DNA of 14,285 nucleotides, taken from contig NZ_LGHJ01000025.1 of assembly GCF_001306055.1 (NCBI RefSeq), positions 1 to 14,285 of the forward strand. The letters run 5' to 3'. Both the position numbers and the translations under genes were made by a program. How positions within the stretch are numbered: position 1 is the stretch's first letter; the number at the start of each line of letters is the position of its first letter. Below the pieces are notes generated by a model. That model worked only from the letters and a program-made list of their open reading frames with translations, was not told the origin of the DNA and did not search any database. This DNA comes from Bellilinea caldifistulae (GTDB lineage Bacteria; Chloroflexota; Anaerolineae; Anaerolineales; Anaerolineaceae). Of this stretch, positions 1 to 7,975 are shown piece by piece.

Positions 1-29
1 TAAACAGGTTTGGGATGAGGTAAAGCCCA

Positions 30-269
30 GTGGATGCACGCATTAGCCGGATTGAGTTTAGCAAGCGGCAACGTCAGGTATTGGCGTTGATTGCGCAGGG
101 TTACACGACCGGTCAGATTGCCTGTGCTTTGGGGATTAGTCGGCGAACCGTGCTTGCGTATTCTGCATATTTGCGCAGTCTGACTGGTGCGGCTAACAAT
201 GCTGGTCTGGTGCATGTTTGTTGGGAGATGGGCGTTTTGCCTTTGGATTGTGCCGGCTTATCAACGTGA
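30..269 (+). CDS. Stand-alone LuxR/GerE-type helix-turn-helix transcriptional regulator (79 aa)
   Basis: GTG start at 30, preceded by GAGG (17-20) and bounded by an in-frame TAA (21-23). The translation carries the LuxR/GerE C-terminal HTH pattern (SKRQRQVLALIAQGYTTGQIACALGISRRTVLAYSAYL). There is no receiver or ligand-binding domain; the ORF is only the DNA-binding module. Confidence 0.7.
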   Translation: MDARISRIEFSKRQRQVLALIAQGYTTGQIACALGISRRTVLAYSAYLRSLTGAANNAGLVHVCWEMGVLPLDCAGLST

Positions 270-330
270 AGCCGGAGACCGCAAGCGGAGCGATTAGCGG
301 AGCATTGCGGGCGTAGGCTTGACCTGCCCT

Positions 331-376
331 TTGCCCCCTCAGGGGGCAAGCGCATTGTGGGGGGCTTGCCCCCCAC
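331..376. repeat. Two adjacent GC-rich palindromes built from copies of GGGGGCAAG / CTTGCCCCC
   Basis: Arms TTGCCCCCT (331-339) and AGGGGGCAA (341-349) are complementary, as are GTGGGGGGC (357-365) and GCCCCCCAC (368-376). GGGGGCAAG (342-350) is also the exact complement of CTTGCCCCC (365-373), so alternative pairings exist. No T-tract follows. Confidence 0.6.
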
Positions 377-449
377 AGGGCGCAAGCTTTCAATGGCGGA
401 CATTTGCTAGCCCGCAGCCCGGAGGGCAAGGGCGGTAGCAAAGGACGCC

Positions 450-529
450 GTGCGCCACAAGAGCGGTGGTGGAGTGACGCCGTAGGCGGAACGACACCAC
501 CAAAACCCTACCTTTCCGCAGTGGCGCAC
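450..529. other. 80-nt nested three-helix stem-loop (candidate structured RNA or REP-like element)
   Basis: Three perfectly nested complementary pairs: GTGCGCCAC (450-458) with GTGGCGCAC (521-529), GGTGGTG (465-471) with CACCACC (495-501), and CGCC (478-481) with GGCG (485-488) around a GTA loop. Strand and function are unknown. Confidence 0.3.
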
Positions 530-544
530 ATTACCTTTTGGTTC

Positions 545-773
545 TGAATCATGATTCACGACTGGTGGCCAGGCTGACTGCGGTGGCCAGGCTGACTGTG
601 GCATGATTCACGACTGGTGGCCAGGCTGACTGCGGTGGCCAGGCTGACTGTGGCATGAATCACGACTGGTGGCCAGGCTGACTGTGGCATGATTCACGAC
701 TGGTGGCCAGGCTGACTGCGGTGGCCAGGCTGACTGTGGCATGAATCACGACTGGTGGCCAGGTGAATCACTA
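545..773. repeat. Tandem direct-repeat array, 52-nt unit with a nested 18-nt sub-repeat (about 4.5 copies)
   Basis: Units at 551-602, 603-654, 655-688 (34 nt, one sub-repeat missing), 689-740 and 741-773 (truncated). Unit = ATGA(T/A)TCACGACT + 2 x GGTGGCCAGGCTGACTG(C/T) + GGC. The array is entered through the perfect 14-bp palindrome TGAATCATGATTCA (545-558). No spacers. Confidence 0.95.
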
Positions 774-918
774 CGATCTACTTTATTCACTTACGGCGGT
801 GGTTGAATGGTTGCTTGCTGCTTTGTGTTAGTTTCAATCCGTTGTTCTGAGACGATTTATCGAAACTTTGTGTTTCAGGGTGAAACAGTTATTTTGCTTT
901 AATTCAATTAATTTTTTT

Positions 919-992
919 CCGTCATTCTTTACGAGCGCAGCGAGCGCGGCAATCTCCCGCAAAGCCTTGGCGGAGGCAGGGCGGGAGATTAC
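919..992 (+). repeat. Solo copy of the repeat family that forms the 5091-5775 array
   Basis: CCGTCATT..ACGAGCGCAGCGAGCGCGGCAATCTCCCGC (919-960) closely matches the first half of the array unit. AATCTCCCGC (951-960) pairs perfectly with GCGGGAGATT (981-990) across a 20-nt loop. Confidence 0.75.
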
Positions 993-1117
993 CAACGGGC
1001 AAAGCGGCTTAACAATTTTGCAAAGATTAATTTCGACCAACCTAAAATTTGTTATAAACAAGTTGTCCAGTGGTATTTTTTTTTCTCAATTTTTTCTCGC
1101 CCTTGTAGGGAAAAATT

Positions 1118-1816
1118 ATGCCCACCCTCAGCCGCACCATGCTCCTGACCGGAATTTTCCTCCTGCTGGCAGGCCTGTTCTGGCAGCCGTTGCCGGCGGT
1201 TCGCGCCTCACCGGCGGCGCAAAGCACGCCGGAGGTGGCTTGTGATGACTACAAGGTGTACCTGCCGCTGATTGCCAACGCTCCCGCCAGCCAGCCGAAT
1301 CAGCCGACTAACACCTGCCTGACCGGCGAAGAAGAAAAACTGGGCAACCTGATCAACGCCTACCGCCGCGAAAAAGGTCTGCCGCCAGTGACTTTCTCCC
1401 AATCGCTGACCCGCGTCGCCCAGGCTCACGTGCGCGACCTGTACGAAAACCGCCCCAATACCGGGGAATGCAACCTGCACTCGTGGTCGGATAAGGGCAA
1501 CTGGACGCCGGTGTGCTACACACCGGATCACAAAAACGCCAGCGGCATGTGGCTGAAGCCCAAAGAGATTACCAACGGCATTTACACCGGCTACGGCTTT
1601 GAGATTGCCTACTGGCACAGCGCCCGGGCAACCGCCGATGGGGCTTTTGCCGCCTGGAAAGCCAGCAGCGGCCACAACGCCGTGATGATTGAAGACAGCA
1701 TCTGGAAGGGGATGAACTGGGGAGCAATGGGCATCGGCATCTACCAGAATTACGCGGTGGTGTGGTTTGGTCAGCCGGCCGACCCACTGGGGAGTGCGAC
1801 CGCCTGCCCGCGCTGA
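1118..1816 (+). CDS. Secreted CAP/SCP (YkwD-like, cysteine-rich secretory protein family) domain protein
   Basis: The N-terminus is a hydrophobic signal-like segment (LLTGIFLLLAGLFW..AVRASPAA). The remainder shows CAP-domain blocks (LINAYRREKGLPPV, AQAHVRDL, GHNAVMIE, YAVVWFG). Confidence 0.7.
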   Translation: MPTLSRTMLLTGIFLLLAGLFWQPLPAVRASPAAQSTPEVACDDYKVYLPLIANAPASQPNQPTNTCLTGEEEKLGNLINAYRREKGLPPVTFSQSLTRVAQAHVRDLYENRPNTGECNLHSWSDKGNWTPVCYTPDHKNASGMWLKPKEITNGIYTGYGFEIAYWHSARATADGAFAAWKASSGHNAVMIEDSIWKGMNWGAMGIGIYQNYAVVWFGQPADPLGSATACPR

Positions 1817-1854: not shown

Positions 1855-2952
1855 ATGTCCAGCCTGCCGCTCGATCAGGTCATCCAGGGTGACTGTGTGG
1901 AGGTGCTCAACCGCCTGCCGCCCGAATCGATTGACCTGATTTTTGCCGACCCGCCCTACAACCTGCAATTGCGCAACGAGCTGCGGCGGCCGGATCACAG
2001 CCGGGTGGCGGGGGTAACCGATCCCTGGGACCGCTTCGCGGACTTTGAGGCTTACGACCAGTTCACCCTTGCCTGGCTGAGCGCCTGCCGGCGGGTGCTA
2101 AAAGCCAGCGGCACGCTGTGGGTGATCGGCAGTTACCACAACATTTACCGGGTGGGTTACCACCTCCAAAATCTGGGGTTCTGGATTTTGAACGACATCG
2201 TCTGGATCAAAACCAACCCGATGCCCAACTTCCGCGGGGTGCGCTTTACCAATGCCCACGAAACGCTGATCTGGGCGCAGAAAGAACGCGGCAAGCCCTA
2301 CACCTTCAACCACCACGCCATGAAGGCGCTCAACGGCGACCTGCAAATGCGCAGCGACTGGCATCTGCCGATCTGCAGCGGCAGCGAGCGCCTGCGCGAA
2401 AACGGCGCCAAAGCCCACTCCACCCAAAAACCGCGTGCTCTGCTTTACCGGGTTCTGCTGGCAGCTTCCAACCCCGGCGATGTGGTGCTGGACCCGTTTT
2501 TCGGCAGCGGCACCACCGGCGAGGTTGCCCGATGGCTGGGGCGGCACTGGATCGGCATTGAACGCGATCCGCGCTATATGGAACTGGCGCGCCGCCGGCT
2601 GGCAAACACATCCGCAGCGCCCCCCGCCACACTGACCCAGACCAACCCGCGCCGTGAACCGCGCCTGCCGTTTGGTGCCTTGCTGGAACACGGTCTGCTA
2701 CAAGCCGGGCAAACCCTGTACTTCGAGGGCCGCACGGAACACACGGCGCTGGTTTTAGCCGACGGACGAGTCGAGTATAATGGAATGCGTGGCTCAATCC
2801 ACCTGATTGCCCGCCAGATCGCCGCAGCAGCGGTCAACGGCTGGCAGCAATGGCATTACTTCGATCCTCACGACGAGACCCTGCGCCCGATTGACCACCT
2901 CCGCCAAAAACTCAAATCCATACTGTTCAAACCAAGAGAGGAAGAAGAATGA
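1855..2952 (+). CDS. ccrM: CcrM-family (beta-class) site-specific N6-adenine DNA methyltransferase, orphan
   Basis: Beta-class motif order: DPPY first (DLIFADPPYNL), the AdoMet motif later (DPFFGSGTTG). Blocks WVIGSYHNI, NDIVWIKTNPMPNFRGVRFTNAHETLIWA and HSTQKPRALL match what I recall for Caulobacter CcrM / M.HinfI relatives. So does the roughly 80-aa C-terminal extension (PRLPFGALLEHGLL...GSIH...NGW..WHY). No restriction endonuclease candidate on either side. Confidence 0.85.
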   Translation: MSSLPLDQVIQGDCVEVLNRLPPESIDLIFADPPYNLQLRNELRRPDHSRVAGVTDPWDRFADFEAYDQFTLAWLSACRRVLKASGTLWVIGSYHNIYRVGYHLQNLGFWILNDIVWIKTNPMPNFRGVRFTNAHETLIWAQKERGKPYTFNHHAMKALNGDLQMRSDWHLPICSGSERLRENGAKAHSTQKPRALLYRVLLAASNPGDVVLDPFFGSGTTGEVARWLGRHWIGIERDPRYMELARRRLANTSAAPPATLTQTNPRREPRLPFGALLEHGLLQAGQTLYFEGRTEHTALVLADGRVEYNGMRGSIHLIARQIAAAAVNGWQQWHYFDPHDETLRPIDHLRQKLKSILFKPREEEE

Positions 2953-4733
2953 CCACCACTGATACCCGTTATCCGCAAACCCGCTGGAGCCTCAGCGACC
3001 TGTTCCCCGCCCCCAACAGCAGCGAACTGGAAAACGCCTTCCAGACGCTGGATCAACTGGTGGCCGAGTTTGAAACCTACCGGGGCAGTCTGCGCGAGGA
3101 CATTTCCGTCGAGGAATTTTTGAAAATCCTGCAACAGTTGGAGAAAATTCAAAATCTGGGGGCGCGGCTGTACGCCTACGCCGGGCTGCTGTTCTCCGAG
3201 GATACCCAGAACCAGACCGCCCAAACCCTGACGGCGCGGGTGGAGCAGTTTGTCGCCGACCTGACCAACCGCACGCTGTTTTTCAACCTGTGGTGGAAAG
3301 ACCTTTCCGATGAAGCCGCCGCCCGGTTGATGCCGGCTGCCGGTGACCTGGAATACTGGCTGGAAGCGCTGCGCCACTTCAAGCCCCACACCCTCAGCGA
3401 AGCCGAGGAAAAAATCATCAACATCAAGAATGTGACCGGCGTCAACGCCCTGCAAATGCTGTACAGTTCCATCACCAACCGCTACACCTTCAAAATTACG
3501 GTGGATGGCGAGGAAAAGGAACTGACCCGCGGTGAGTTGATGGTCTACGTGCGCGGCGCCGACCCCGACCTGCGCGCCGCCGCCTATCAGGAACTCTACC
3601 GCGTCTACGGCAACGACGGGACGATTCTGGGGCAGATTTATCAGGCGCTGGTGCGCGACTGGCGCAATGAGCAGATCAACCTGCGCAAACACCGCACGCC
3701 CATGTCGGCGCGCAATCTGGTCAACGACCTGCCGGATGAGGTGGTGGATACGCTGCTGGATGTGTGCGCCAGCAACGTAGATGTGTTCCAGCGCTACTTC
3801 CGCCTCAAAGCCCGCTGGCTGAAGATGAATCGGCTGCGCCGCTATGATATTTACGCGCCGGTTGCCAAAGCCGATAAGCACTATCCCTTCGATCAGGCCG
3901 CCGTGACCGTCTTCGACGCCTTCCGCGAGTTCGACCCGCAAATTGCCGAGCTGGCGCGGCGGGTGTTCGAGGAGAAACACCTTGACAGCGAGGTGCGCAA
4001 GGGCAAGCGCAGCGGCGCGTTCTGCTGGGGCGCCGTGCCGGAACTGACCCCGTGGGTGCTGCTCAACTACCAGGGGCGCGCCGATGATATGGCAACCATG
4101 GCGCACGAATTGGGGCATGCCATCCACTCCATGCTGGCATCCCATCACAGCGTGCTGACGTGGCACTCCAACCTGCCGCTGGCCGAAACCGCCTCCACCT
4201 TCGGCGAAATGCTGCTGATTGACCGCCTGCTCAAAAGCGAAAGCGACCCGGCTGTGCGGCGCGACCTGCTCTTCCGCCAGATTGACGACGCCTACGCCAC
4301 CATTCAACGGCAGGTCTTCTTTGCACTGTTTGAACGCGATGCGCATGAAATGGTGCATCAGGGCGCCTCGGTGGATGAACTGGCAAACGCTTATATGGAA
4401 AACCTGCGCCGTCAATTTGGGGACGCGGTAGATGTCAGCAACGAGTTCCGCTGGGAGTGGGTTTCCATTCCGCACATTTTCGATGTGCCGTTCTACGTGT
4501 ACGCCTATGCGTTCGGGCAATTGCTGGTATTCTCCCTTTATCAGCAGTACAAAGCCGAAGGGGATTCGTTCAAACCGCGCTACTTGAAAATCCTTTCGAC
4601 CGGCGGCTCGAAAGCGCCGATTAAGGTGTTGAGCGAGGCGGGCGTGGACGTCAGCCAGCCGTCCTTCTGGCAGGGCGGTTATGACTTCATCCGCCAGCAG
4701 ATAGAGGCGCTGGAGAGCATTCCGATTGAATGA
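2949..4733 (+). CDS. pepF: M3B-family oligoendopeptidase F (zinc metallopeptidase)
   Basis: HEXXH zinc motif (MAHELGHAIH) with a downstream glutamate block (ETASTFGE). The 594-aa length and helical N-terminal domain fit PepF. ATG 2949 overlaps the methyltransferase stop (ATGA) and follows GAGAGGAAGAAG. Confidence 0.85.
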   Translation: MTTTDTRYPQTRWSLSDLFPAPNSSELENAFQTLDQLVAEFETYRGSLREDISVEEFLKILQQLEKIQNLGARLYAYAGLLFSEDTQNQTAQTLTARVEQFVADLTNRTLFFNLWWKDLSDEAAARLMPAAGDLEYWLEALRHFKPHTLSEAEEKIINIKNVTGVNALQMLYSSITNRYTFKITVDGEEKELTRGELMVYVRGADPDLRAAAYQELYRVYGNDGTILGQIYQALVRDWRNEQINLRKHRTPMSARNLVNDLPDEVVDTLLDVCASNVDVFQRYFRLKARWLKMNRLRRYDIYAPVAKADKHYPFDQAAVTVFDAFREFDPQIAELARRVFEEKHLDSEVRKGKRSGAFCWGAVPELTPWVLLNYQGRADDMATMAHELGHAIHSMLASHHSVLTWHSNLPLAETASTFGEMLLIDRLLKSESDPAVRRDLLFRQIDDAYATIQRQVFFALFERDAHEMVHQGASVDELANAYMENLRRQFGDAVDVSNEFRWEWVSIPHIFDVPFYVYAYAFGQLLVFSLYQQYKAEGDSFKPRYLKILSTGGSKAPIKVLSEAGVDVSQPSFWQGGYDFIRQQIEALESIPIE

Positions 4734-5020
4734 GCAAATTGCCATACTTCGTTTACATCTTGACGAATTCGTACAACACCGTTTTATACACAGGTGTAAC
4801 CAATGACCTGATCAGAAGAATTAATGAGCATAAAAACGGAATTGGAAGTAAGTTCACATCCCGCTATCGCGTTCATAAATTGGTGTATGTTGAGTCAACG
4901 GAGAGCGTAGAGGGCGCCATTGGAAGGGAAAAACAAATCAAAGGTTGGTCGAGGGCGAAAAAGGTTTCGTTGATCGAATCGGTAAATCCTGAATGGAAAG
5001 ATCTTTCTGATGAGTTGTGA
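4730..5020 (+). CDS. Small GIY-YIG nuclease-domain protein (UPF0213-like, 96 aa)
   Basis: GIY-YIG signature YFVYILTN..LYTGVTNDLIRRINEHK plus REKQIKGWSRAKK. The start ATG overlaps the pepF stop (ATGA at 4730-4733). Composition is clearly more AT-rich than the neighbours: 22 of the first 60 nt are G+C, against 33 of the last 60 nt of pepF (hand count). Confidence 0.85.
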   Translation: MSKLPYFVYILTNSYNTVLYTGVTNDLIRRINEHKNGIGSKFTSRYRVHKLVYVESTESVEGAIGREKQIKGWSRAKKVSLIESVNPEWKDLSDEL

Positions 5021-5090
5021 TTATTTTGTAACTTCATTGCTGGCGGGAAAAACACTCTCCCGCGTGGGTGTAGACGCGAAAATAGTGTTC

Positions 5091-5775
5091 ACGTCATTGC
5101 AAGCGAGCGCAGCGAGCGCGGCAATCTCCCGCAAGACCGGCGGGGAGACCCCTCACTCCGTTCGGGGTGACATTAAGGGGTTTACGTCATTGCAAGCGAG
5201 CGCAGCGAGCGCGGCAATCTCCCGCAGAGCCGGCGGGGAGACCCCTCACTCCGTTCGGGGTGACATTAAGGGGTTTACCTCATTGCAAGCGAGCGCGGCA
5301 ATCTCTCGCAAGACCGGCGGGGAGACCCCTCACTCCGTTCGGGGTGACATTAAGGGGTTCACGTCATTGCAAGCGAGCGCGGCAATCTCCCGCAGAGCCG
5401 GCGGGGAGACCCCTCACTCCGTTCGGGGTGACATTAAGGGGTTTACCTCATTGCAAGCGAGCGCGGCAATCTCCCGCAGAGCCGGCGGGGAGACCCCTCA
5501 CTCCGTTCGGGGTGACATTAAGGGGTTTACGTCATTGCGAGCGAGCGCGGCGAGCGCGGCAATCTCCCGCAAGACCGGCGGGGAGACCCCTCACTCCGTT
5601 CGGGGTGACATTAGGGGGTTCACGTCATTGCGAGCGAGCGCAGCGAGCGCGGCAATCTCTCGCAAGACCGGCGGGGAGACCCCTCACTCCGTTCGGGGTG
5701 ACATTAGGGGGTTTACGTCATTGCAAGCGAGCGCGGCGAGCGCGGCAATCTCCCGCAAGACCGGCGGGGAGATTC
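5091..5775 (+). repeat. Tandem array of an 84/93-nt two-hairpin unit (7 full copies plus a truncated 8th)
   Basis: Units at 5091-5183, 5184-5276, 5277-5360, 5361-5444, 5445-5528, 5529-5621, 5622-5714 and 5715 to about 5772. They are near-identical, and the 93 vs 84 difference is a 9-nt internal duplication. The strand assignment rests on U-G wobble positions (see findings). Confidence 0.95.
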
Positions 5776-7541: not shown

Positions 7542-7599
7542 TAAGGAAGGAAATCACACCCCCACAGGTGGGGAGTCTCTCTGCGGTTCTTTTTTCGTT

Positions 7600-7975
7600 T
7601 TTTCCACGTTATCTGTGGATAAATGTGGAAAAACTGTGGATAAGTTGGGATGGATGTGGAAAATTGGGGATAAATGCTCAAATTATTCTGCTTTAGCGTC
7701 AAAGTCAGCCCCCCATATATGGGGGGCAAATGTCCTGGATTGCCATATATAAAAAAGCCCGCTTTATGACGAAAATTTCGGTTTTTCAATCCACGCTTTC
7801 TCCACAGAATCTATCCCCAAAGCGGGGTAATTTTTACCACTGTATGCAGCCAACCAGATCCTCATTAACCCTATATATGGGGGATTGGTGCAATCAAAGG
7901 CGGTTTTATCCACATATCCCCAGCCCCTACTGATTCTACGAATCTCATTAAACTTTATTCTGATGGGGATAAATG
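7600..7975. other. DnaA-box cluster (candidate oriC or DnaA-titrating/regulatory locus)
   Basis: Perfect boxes: TGTGGATAA at 7614-7622 and 7635-7643, TTATCCACA at 7906-7914. One-mismatch boxes at 7624-7632, 7655-7663 (TGTGGAAAA), 7665-7673, 7964-7972 (TGGGGATAA) and 7798-7806 (TTCTCCACA). Two-mismatch boxes at 7600-7608, 7811-7819 and 7914-7922. The region is non-coding, with AT-rich and T-rich stretches. Confidence 0.6.

Follow-up and report, generated by a model that had tools for sequence, protein, structure and literature searches.

A short GANTC palindrome amplified in tandem within a rare, apparently mobile cassette of Bellilinea caldifistulae

Introduction

Dam methylation reportedly controls the ends and promoters of the transposable elements IS10/Tn10, IS50/Tn5 and IS903. 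IS10, IS50 and IS903 encode their own transposase, with single GATC sites located in the promoter and right at the terminus of the element. In IS10-type elements the methyltransferase sites lie inside a protein-recognition sequence, and activity can therefore be coupled to the passage of the replication fork, which leaves hemimethylated DNA. The pac site of phage P1 is said to hold seven TGATC(A/G) hexamers and to be cleaved under Dam regulation. In the pap and agn43 switches, two or three methyltransferase sites lie inside regulator sites, with methylation and binding mutually exclusive; these switches are part of the promoter of the operon they control and depend on Lrp or OxyR. To our knowledge, understanding of CcrM-type GANTC methylation is limited to the Alphaproteobacteria. 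In Chloroflexota, m6A was found at 88–99% of GANTC sites in three MAGs (metagenome-assembled genomes) with an orphan methyltransferase (PMC6329791); the literature reports this presence, and we found no functional role described for GANTC methylation in the phylum.

We analysed a window of 14,285 nucleotides (the whole stretch of DNA considered here, from contig NZ_LGHJ01000025.1 of Bellilinea caldifistulae), in which a sequence-only reading had described a GANTC-rich tandem array at 545–773. The array lies in a cassette that can be set beside each of these systems. As in IS10, IS50 and IS903, a host orphan methyltransferase has its sites close to one end of a mobile element and within a recognition sequence, here a putative one. 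Unlike them, the cassette has no transposase, and its GANTC inverted pair is placed ~200 nt inside the boundary and amplified in tandem, with a methylation dependence that is likewise putative. P1 pac is comparable in having some seven short repeats packed into a few hundred bp, each with a methyltransferase target flanked by T..A. However, pac serves phage packaging with a pacase, whereas no similarity of the cassette to phages or plasmids was found, and the Bellilinea repeats are long units of 34/52 nt derived from recent duplication. With pap and agn43 the locus shares the idea, only proposed here, that methylation and protein binding exclude each other, but the cassette site lies downstream of an operon and upstream of genes that vary from copy to copy and are unrelated, with no promoter consensus, rather than in the promoter of one specific operon.

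The sequence-only reading had called the array iteron-like. Direct repeats beside an AT-richer stretch and near a gene for a small DNA-binding protein do recall iterons, yet the likeness fails on most points: the cassette holds only an 82–87-aa helical protein and a 79-aa GerE helix-turn-helix (HTH) protein, without a Rep initiator gene or any match to Rep, phage or plasmid families; the heads are unevenly spaced and unphased (intervals of 52/34 nt here, 48/47/38 nt in the C14 copy, 91 nt in relative L017) instead of following phased 17–22-bp repeats; the copies are chromosomal; and no DnaA boxes were found in the cassette. Only the AT-richer tail fits. In ToxI-type loci, repeats lie directly upstream of an endoribonuclease toxin gene; here no downstream gene is conserved.

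Results

Sequence inspection resolves window positions 545–773 into a 14-bp palindrome, five CATGA(T/A)TCACGAC heads and seven 18-nt sub-repeats. The heads, ATGA[T/A]TCACGACT, start at 551, 603, 655, 689 and 741, the sub-repeat GGTGGCCAGGCTGACTG occurs 7 times, and the units measure 52, 52, 34 and 52 nt before a truncated terminal one. GANTC starts at 546, 553, 605, 657, 691, 743 and 765, which accounts for 7 of the 32 sites of the 14.3-kb window. The features of the locus are as follows.

2..46, + strand: 3' end of the first cassette gene (82–87-aa helical protein, no Pfam family), cut by the contig start, overlapping the HTH gene by 17 nt
30..269, + strand: second cassette gene, GerE/LuxR-type HTH-only protein of 79 aa (Pfam GerE, E = 1.4e-11)
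311..540, + strand: GC-rich structured domain (covariation) of several helices, the last a nested hairpin at 450–529, then the invariant AAAACCCTACCTT; a T-rich stretch is next
545..558, no strand: entry palindrome TGAATCATGATTCA, the inverted pair GAATCA/TGATTC
550..773, no strand: tandem array of five units
550–601: array unit 1, T-head, 52 nt
602–653: array unit 2, T-head, 52 nt
654–687: array unit 3, A-head, 34 nt
688–739: array unit 4, T-head, 52 nt
740–773: array unit 5, A-head, truncated, with end GGTGAATCAC
774..930, no strand: AT-richer cassette tail with two family-conserved motifs
802–813: tail motif GTTGAATGGTTG, conserved across the cassette family
inside 831–866: tail motif TTTCAATCCGTTGTTCTGAGAC, conserved across the cassette family
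919..992, no strand: solo REP-type hairpin (..GAGCGCGGCAATCTCCCGC..GCGGGAGATT), the right cassette boundary, where inter-copy similarity stops
1855..2952, + strand: CcrM-type N6-adenine methyltransferase, outside the cassette (NCBIfam CcrM, 531 bits, full length)

All statements of the sequence-only reading about heads, palindrome and GANTC starts were confirmed, as were its assignments of a GerE/LuxR HTH-only protein (30–269, Pfam GerE), a CAP-domain protein (1118–1816) and a CcrM-type methyltransferase (1855–2952, by family profiles and alignment to PDB entry 6PBD). Its figure of about one GANTC expected by chance falls to ~0.63 sites in 229 bp at the genome-wide density of 2.76 per kb. The excess of seven over one does not count seven independent events, because one site-bearing unit was duplicated. 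Similar GANTC clusters occur in other tandem arrays of the same genome, for example at C1:214.9–215.7 kb. The alternation between T- and A-heads concerns one base, at the N of GANTC, and distinguishes the halves (52 + 34 nt) of a higher-order repeat of 86 nt, which is clearest in the sister array with which contig C2 ends. No exact copy of the head was found outside the arrays in the genome, where matches with 1–2 mismatches are scattered.

Two other readings of the array and tail were discarded. Neither is coding: the array has a period that 3 does not divide and is crossed by no ORF, and the ORF in the tail loses its frame from copy to copy. As the sequence-only reading had also held, the array is not a CRISPR, its bodies being identical copies without unique spacers and the genome's real CRISPR array, on C20, having a different 33-nt repeat. 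The 36-nt tail segment 831–866 was considered as a CRISPR-like solo repeat; it has only GGATTGAAAC in common with the type I-C-like C20 repeat, and we rejected the idea because this 10-mer occurs ~24 times elsewhere in the genome.

This genome has four such arrays, each at the equivalent place of a ~1.7-kb cassette. From 5' to 3' this cassette comprises a GC-rich domain, paired promoter boxes, the genes for the helical protein and the GerE/LuxR HTH, the structured domain (+ strand), a T-rich stretch, the head site(s) and the AT-richer tail, in which GC drops to about 41–46% (measured on the C2 copy). Three arrays are near-identical and one is diverged. A comparison of unit number had been suggested as a check: the paralogous copies differ (5, 6, 10 and 3–4 heads). 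A second record of the same organism (DF967971.1, GCA_001050215.2) is identical at the locus and possibly derived from the same data, and is therefore uninformative on polymorphism.

The first cassette gene is complete in the other copies and on scaffold DF967971. An AF2 model of its product has four helices (pLDDT 81), for which no PDB analogue was found (best E = 4.3); its family has 11 representatives among 1.84 billion proteins. The association of the array with a GerE/LuxR gene, already noted from the window, extends to all four copies of this genome and to relatives. Among 8 family members the GerE recognition helix ISRRTVLAYSAYLR hardly varies, and the paired promoter boxes CCATATATGGGGG are nearly invariant too; the flanks of the heads vary. 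From this pattern the HTH more likely binds the promoter boxes than the array, and the earlier idea of the LuxR-type protein as the array binder loses ground. PADLOC and PHROGs found nothing specific in the cassette, PADLOC giving one weak HTH match.

Across diverged cassettes, what is conserved is an inverted pair, GANTCA-N(0/6/44)-TGANTC, with the N of each GANTC free. Every family member has such a paired site (GAATCGTGATTC, GAGTCATGATTC, GAGTCA-N6-TGACTC or TGATTC..N44..GAATCA), and N was seen as A, T, G or C. The pair persists in lineages whose surroundings cannot be aligned, where N changes and G, A, T and C are kept. A single palindrome reads GAATCATGATTC. Heads are conserved and bodies unrelated, with units of 52/34 nt here and 48/47/38 nt in C14; L017 has a 91-nt duplicated block and L023 a single site. 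In nine copies GANTC is confined to the head region, with the exception of a lone site close to the 5' end of L027, a partial contig, and the five copies tested have 0 sites in their remaining 1.3–2.05 kb against shuffle means of 1.8–3.2 (P(0) 0.03–0.13 each). Both the pair conservation and the GANTC avoidance rest on small numbers of homologous sequences, because there are only ~six independent cassette lineages. The paired site is not enriched elsewhere in the genome (1–6 per spacing against 2.75 expected), and on this result and the scattered head matches we rejected the idea of a genomic regulon of heads. Head spacing has no helical phasing.

These data bear on the reading of the array as a neutral minisatellite, that is, a slippage by-product in the non-coding tail of a selfish cassette, with head number and GANTC content both functionless and a GANTC pair owed to chance and shared ancestry. 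Its units are 100% identical and their number differs between copies; GANTC also occurs in other tandem arrays of the genome, and some relatives (L023) have only one site. Moreover, GANTC was lost in two of the three heads of the C14 array (CATGGTTCAC, CATGTTCAC), and three head-like units of G009 read CATGATTTAG; extra heads, it follows, need not keep the site. However, chance and ancestry fit poorly with an inverted pair kept amid unalignable sequence with N alone changing, with the rest of every cassette (the L027 site excepted) being free of GANTC, and with an amplification that recurred in at least three lineages in different registers. We consider this explanation unlikely. Amplification in itself could be neutral, and 100% unit identity would also be expected of a very young minisatellite.

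Next to the array, the part of the structured domain at 311–452 has 50 pairs, 97.5% paired, 19 of them with compensatory changes; none of 500 shuffles was equally good, and its invariant G-U pairs are on the + strand. By this covariation the domain appears to work on the + strand, as RNA or ssDNA. Both helices of its terminal hairpin are swapped between copy types. No Rfam family was found for the domain: at E ≤ 1 the sole match was a sub-threshold osmY, outside the region. Since the domain would act as RNA or ssDNA, an RNA role for the heads is possible, and the array might then be the 3' continuation of a structured + strand RNA, a protein-binding or processing platform like CsrB/RsmY or ToxI. 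T-type and A-type heads can pair at 9 of 11 positions, folding the bodies into hairpins. No canonical terminator separates the structured domain from the array, and on either strand the fold of the array beats that of shuffled sequence (z = −2.0 on +, −2.9 on −), although such z-scores are unreliable for internally repeated sequence and it is the − strand that has the better score. In all lineages a conserved T-rich tract separates domain and heads, an intrinsic-terminator-like hairpin precedes the domain in L023, and no toxin-like or RNA-binding gene consistently follows the array. A constraint on hairpins only would not preserve GANTC in both arms. We therefore hold an RNA-level role of the array to be very improbable.

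The cassette as a whole is found at different sites in related genomes. Within this genome, the copies on C21 and at the end of C2 are 100% identical over the array and the first 100 nt of the tail, 80–89% identical over the rest, and end in 3' hairpins of different types. The G006 copy is 97.5% identical to the C14 copy, with a flank that is only 78% identical and syntenic to C3 here; the genes flanking the G009 copy sit on C2 and C1 here, and a 23-nt direct repeat brackets that copy. In L023 the contig ends are identical over 29 nt. Sequence or small-ORF matches place the cassette in 3 of 22 genus genomes, and a covariance model of the structured domain, run on those 22, matched only this genome and G009, with no further copies. 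Other relatives amount to one metagenome locus and a few short contigs; no small-ORF match was found in 400 other genomes of the class, and neither a DNA match in plasmid and phage collections nor any phage genes. The 31 viral contigs that match a 16-mer of the structured domain do not align to the cassette and were dismissed as chance. A REP sequence ending GGCAATC, in the same orientation as the right-boundary hairpin, also precedes the left end of each copy; neither terminal inverted repeats nor a short target-site duplication was found. No exact empty site was obtained, the G006 contig ending inside the cassette and the G009 flanks being unlinked here.

The cassette thus resembles MICs and MITEs: it is small, multi-copy and transposase-less, carries passenger genes, occupies different loci in related genomes and is better conserved than its flanks. 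It differs from them in being bounded by same-orientation REP-type sequence or long direct repeats and in carrying two large structured domains. We conclude from these comparisons that it is a rare, multi-copy, horizontally moving, REP-flanked element of Bellilinea-type Chloroflexota.

Such movement raises the question of whether the palindrome is a recombination or transposition site, the core for a recombinase acting in trans (such as a tyrosine recombinase of the host, by analogy with Xer-dependent elements) whose abortive or intermolecular events produced the tandem units. The cassette changes sites and is far more conserved than its flanks without having a recombinase of its own, inverted half-sites around a short variable spacer are typical of recombinase cores, and direct repeats bracket copies (23 nt in G009, REP-type here, the 29-nt contig ends in L023). 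But the palindrome lies ~200 nt inside the right boundary, away from the junction, no empty/occupied pair was recoverable, and no circular form was seen. A spacer range of 0–44 nt is also too variable for a single recombinase. We rate this explanation as highly doubtful.

The methyltransferase gene outside the cassette encodes a close CcrM homologue. Its product matches Pfam N6_N4_Mtase (PF01555, E = 1.2e-63) and RAMA (50.5 bits), is 56.5% identical to Caulobacter CcrM 6PBD (44% in the C-terminal part), and has a DPPY motif aligned with CcrM D31-Y34. Alignment to 6PBD shows conservation of R44, P45, F63, Y93, H94, K118, M122, P123, F125, R129, F130, H134 and E135 in the methyltransferase and of S315, H317, N330, W332 and R350 in the C-terminal domain; the CcrM residues reading G1, T4 and C5 are kept. 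Substitutions are G39G40 to R-N, L43 to R and N47 to H, and specificity at N is uncertain because the N-pocket residues G39/G40 are R-N here. On the strength of these residues the target is likely GANTC, and this is most likely the enzyme that methylates GANTC in the array, just as it would everywhere else in the genome. The motif is under-represented genome-wide (O/E 0.73–0.78, rank 16 of 1,024 pentamers). As in the Caulobacter CcrM/GANTC system (PDB 6PBD; PMC6787082), the enzyme is an orphan with a C-terminal domain and its target is under-represented; the Bellilinea case differs in its phylum, in the replaced G39/G40 and in that no GcrA- or CtrA-type reader is known.

Of 40 related genomes, 33 carry the gene, in a single copy, and it is a vertically inherited core orphan gene of the order; its nearness to the array is therefore accidental, and three of the four arrays are far from it. 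The proposed link between the array and the adjacent gene fails on this contrast between a core gene and a cassette found in so few genomes of the genus.

The sequence-only reading had made the array a methylation-sensitive, iteron-like platform bound by the LuxR-type protein, or a phase-variable copy-number switch of the CAP gene, with the CcrM-type enzyme 1.1 kb away, and in its favour the LuxR/GerE gene always adjoins the array, every head of this copy has GANTC, the methyltransferase is a good CcrM homologue, head number differs between paralogous copies, and the next gene is co-directional in this copy and in the C2-end copy; it is nevertheless very unlikely, given that the genes after the four copies are unrelated and two of them convergent (CAP; convergent MBL-fold hydrolase; 430-aa protein without family; convergent 302-aa ORF), that the array lies 345 nt from the CAP start with no promoter between (no promoter or terminator consensus was found in window positions 1–1300), that the methyltransferase is a core gene distant from most arrays, that the promoter boxes are the likelier GerE operator, and that initiator gene and helical phasing are lacking. 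A switch for the CAP gene is unsupported because the downstream genes differ between copies, and the CAP and methyltransferase genes are bystanders.

Discussion

We conclude that the array arose by local amplification of a short DNA palindrome, GANTCA-spacer-TGANTC, and that the entry palindrome at 545–558 is its ancestral kernel. That we are dealing with a cassette-borne amplified site, and not with a switch of the CAP gene or of the CcrM locus, is highly probable. We give about an even chance to the fuller explanation, in which a palindrome carried by the cassette was amplified by slippage and homogenised by gene conversion, its half-sites being targets of host GANTC methylation.

Unamplified cassettes have two head-like repeats, one on either side of a 38-nt body. 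According to this explanation, slipped-strand or unequal recombination between these repeats would have produced the tandem units, separately in three or more lineages whose bodies and periods differ, and inter-copy gene conversion would have homogenised the arrays within a genome. The conserved kernel would be the DNA recognition site of a dimeric protein. Candidate readers are the small protein and the HTH of the cassette itself, and an enzyme, of the host or acting in trans, that mobilises it. Each half-site would be a target of the host's core CcrM-type methyltransferase, and with methylated half-sites recognition would depend on whether the DNA is fully methylated or, being newly replicated, hemimethylated, as it does at transposon ends under Dam control. 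Taken by themselves, these parts differ in strength: the palindrome may be a protein-binding DNA site, with chances somewhat short of even, and a functional reading of its methylation state is unlikely.

The boldest version, which we regard as quite improbable, would make the inverted GANTC pair a replication-coupled licence: the protein responsible for moving or regulating the cassette would recognise the palindrome only in the hemimethylated state left behind the replication fork, and tandem amplification would multiply the signal. If true, this would be the first functional read-out of core CcrM-type methylation in Anaerolineae, and the cassette would represent a novel type of mobile element, lacking a transposase and organised around two structured RNA domains.

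Independently of that version, short-read assemblies of this genome break at several unstable copies, of which this array is one. Throughout an order of Chloroflexota, a close homologue of CcrM belongs to the core genes as an orphan, accompanied by genome-wide depletion of GANTC, and a GANTC pair holds a fixed position in one rare mobile cassette that otherwise avoids the site. The 12–14-bp palindrome, with its arrays of 5–10 copies, offers a concrete substrate for methylation-sensitive recognition in this phylum.

Four arrays occupy the same place in one cassette

The array at window 545-773 has the sequence structure described in the sequence-only reading. The palindrome TGAATCATGATTCA stands at 545-558, five heads of the form CATGA(T/A)TCACGAC start at 550, 602, 654, 688 and 740, with GGTGGCCAGGCTGACTG(C/T) present once or twice behind each head, and the truncated final unit ends in GGTGAATCAC. 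The T/A alternation of the heads concerns a single base, the N of GANTC, which tells the 52-nt half of an 86-nt higher-order repeat from its 34-nt half. GANTC starts at 546, 553, 605, 657, 691, 743 and 765; the array thus accounts for 7 of the 32 present across the window, whereas the genome-wide density (10,083 sites, 2.76 per kb) predicts 0.63 in 229 bp. This excess is real and trivial in origin, because it arose through duplication of a unit that carries a single site. The dense GANTC clusters of the genome also include another region of tandem repeats (C1:214.9-215.7 kb).

The window is the entire contig C21 of a 3.66-Mb assembly in 31 contigs. Contig C2 carries identical head and body types twice, at C2:66392-66628 and at its terminus, where the contig breaks within the array, and a diverged array lies at C14:35397-35560. 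In scaffold DF967971.1, a second public record of the organism, the C2-end array is present in full and comprises 10 heads and 12 GANTC sites. All four arrays occupy the same position within a module of ~1.7 kb, and the proposed link between array and LuxR gene holds in that a GerE/LuxR gene belongs to this module at every array.

Elements of the cassette
GC-rich 5' domain
Two direct boxes, CC(A/T)TAT(A/G)TGGGGG, at a distance of 31 nt, on either side of a promoter-like stretch and flanking GTGTCAATTGT(T/C)ACTTGTG
Gene for an 82-87-aa protein without Pfam family
GerE/LuxR HTH gene, 78-79 aa, overlapping the preceding gene
230-nt GC-rich domain
T-rich stretch
Heads
AT-richer tail of ~160 nt, in which two motifs are conserved
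REP-type sequence on both flanks
Operon promoter (L061:2080-2250, L001:7560-7650, L009:870-930), outside the window, whose contig starts later

Three contig ends fall inside cassette copies (C2 end in the array, C21 start in the small ORF, C14 start in the promoter), and the cassette is therefore a cause of assembly breaks. Even in scaffold DF967971.1, one copy keeps an N gap within its 5' domain.

An inverted GANTC pair is the conserved kernel

C21-type and C14-type arrays retain their heads (CATGATTCACGAC) while their bodies are unrelated. Head regions take the following forms.

Head regions by lineage
C21-type arrays: units of 52/34 nt
C14 array: units of 48/47/38 nt
L017 (metagenome contig): 91-nt block, duplicated
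L023 (contig with a cassette relative): one site only
G009 (genome of the same genus): inverted pair, 56 nt start to start, and three head-like units
L027 (contig with a cassette relative): GAGTCAGCCCCCTGACTC

Shared across them is an inverted pair, GANTCA-N(0, 6 or 44)-TGANTC, in which the N of GANTC may be A, T, G or C. Among nine cassette copies examined, GANTC sites are confined to the head region, 45-110 nt past the invariant AAAACCCTAC, the sole exception being one close to the 5' terminus of L027, a partial contig. The remaining 1.3-2.05 kb of the cassette contains none in the five copies tested (shuffle means 1.8-3.2; P(0) 0.03-0.13 per cassette). GANTC as the kernel of the array is upheld. 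This pattern, based on ~six related lineages, is the strongest point for the earlier idea that GANTC matters. The argument is weakened because amplified heads of C14 and head-like units of G009 have lost the site. Elsewhere in the genome the paired site is not enriched, and no heads were found outside arrays.

The neighbouring methyltransferase is a core gene

The CcrM-type product of ORF 1855-2952 does belong to that family, matching NCBIfam CcrM over its full length (531 bits) and 6PBD at 56.5% identity. It keeps the CcrM readers of G1 (R44), T4 (F63, Y93, H94, R129) and C5 (loop 120-126) (PMC6787082), as well as the dimer residues and C-terminal S315, H317, N330, W332 and R350. CcrM G39/G40 are R-N in B. 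caldifistulae, which makes its preference at N uncertain. Of 40 related genomes of the order, 33 carry the gene as a single copy, in 18 of 19 genera, and its identity drops from 90% to 56%, tracking relatedness. It is therefore a core orphan gene, and that it lies near this particular copy of the cassette is a coincidence; the significance attached to that proximity falls away. So does action of the array on the CAP gene (1118-1816), as the genes following the four copies differ: the CAP gene, a convergent MBL-fold hydrolase gene, a 430-aa ORF without family and a convergent 302-aa ORF. Window 1-1300 shows neither a sigma-70-type promoter consensus nor one for an intrinsic terminator.

Methylation of the array sites is a reasonable inference from the CcrM homologue, the depletion of GANTC (among the 20 most depleted pentamers of the genome, O/E 0.73-0.78) and the m6A measured in three Chloroflexi MAGs with an orphan GANTC-type enzyme, where it marks 88-99% of GANTC sites (Hiraoka et al., PMC6329791). 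A literature search found no role for GANTC methylation in Chloroflexota.

Other repeats were also observed. A tandem 10-nt period at window 7614-7676 (consensus TGTGGATAAA, which resembles a DnaA box and reads TTATCCACA on the opposite strand) lies at ~7 kb distance from the array, has GANTC sites at 7573, 7807, 7932 and 7940, and is a possible oriC region. A large CRISPR array at C20:15609-23986 (~124 repeats of GTCGCTCCCCCCACGGGGAGCGTGGATTGAAAC) is unrelated to the window array.

Candidate readers and the structured domain

Binding of the array by the LuxR-type protein, as first proposed, is probably wrong. The GerE recognition helix (ISRRTVLAYSAYLR) is nearly invariant among eight members, and so are the paired promoter boxes, while the head flanks vary; we think that the HTH protein is an autoregulator with the boxes as its likely operator. 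The boxes are conserved in 7 of the 9 cassette copies examined, with variants in L027 (CCATATGTGGGGG, CCTATATGTGGGGG) and none in the copy L028. The palindrome might be read by the small four-helix protein, by a host factor or by a recombinase acting in trans. The AF2 model of the small protein has four helices (pLDDT 81), and no structural analogue of it was found.

The heads might instead have a role in RNA, given the adjacent GC-rich structured domain (window 311-540; C2:66159-66390; C14:35158-35390). At window 311-452 it folds into six helices of 50 pairs, with 97.5% of cells paired and compensatory changes in 19 of the 50 pairs; none of 500 shuffles was as good, and slid controls collapse. 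On the + strand, several G-U pairs vary little or not at all, and both helices of the terminal nested hairpin (450-529) are exchanged between copy types with pairing kept. It follows that the domain acts as + strand RNA or single-stranded DNA. A conserved T-rich tract, however, separates it from the heads. The domain matched no Rfam family. Upstream of the operon, each cassette carries a related domain that shares the GCGGAGCGGAGC loop and the ..CCCTTACCTT motif.

Array dynamics and mobility of the cassette

Unit number is unstable among paralogous copies, as had been suggested, with 5 (window locus), 6, 10 and 3-4 heads; DF967971.1 is identical at the window array locus. Between C21 and the C2 end, identity is 100% over the array and the first 100 nt of its tail, within cassettes that are otherwise 80-89% identical and carry different types of 3' hairpin, a pattern expected if unequal exchange and gene conversion operate between copies.

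The small protein was absent from 400 other genomes of the class and has 11 representatives among 1.84 billion proteins; wherever neighbours were looked up on multi-gene contigs, an overlapping small HTH gene came next. Within the genus, only genomes G006 and G009 also carry the cassette, and a covariance model of the structured domain found no additional copies there. A metagenome contig of 1.46 kb (L017) and a handful of short ones (L023, L027) supply further lineages. Identity between the G006 and C14 copies is 97.5%, while the flank of the G006 copy is 78% identical and matches C3 of B. caldifistulae. The G009 copy, bracketed by a 23-nt direct repeat, lies between genes located on C2 and C1 in B. 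caldifistulae. Because the G006 copy outdoes its flank in identity and the neighbours of the G009 copy sit elsewhere here, the cassette moves both between genomes and within them, despite encoding no recombinase.

REP-type hairpin arrays of 84/93 nt (CGTCATTGCGAGCGAGCGC..GGCAATCTCCCGC..) adjoin a GIY-YIG gene (window 4730-5020).

REP-type sequence
Window 5087-5772 and 919-992
C2:64903-65152 and 66795-67063
C14:1-1000

The same REP sequence brackets every cassette copy in the same orientation, so the cassette may insert into REPs or recombine through them. The 1637-nt L023 (Logan contig SRR17771294_48872) is a complete relative of the cassette with the same 29 nt at both ends (ATCAATAAATGCCCGTCAGGGCATTAAGA). 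Either it is circular, or a different REP type forms its borders; that type is also abundant in B. caldifistulae (C1:214-215 kb, C14:3.9-4.4 kb).

The module is a rare mobile cassette family without match in protein-family, Rfam, phage or plasmid searches. Its array, whose function is inferred, is best read as a palindromic DNA site that belongs to the cassette, has been amplified and overlaps with methylation of GANTC by the host.
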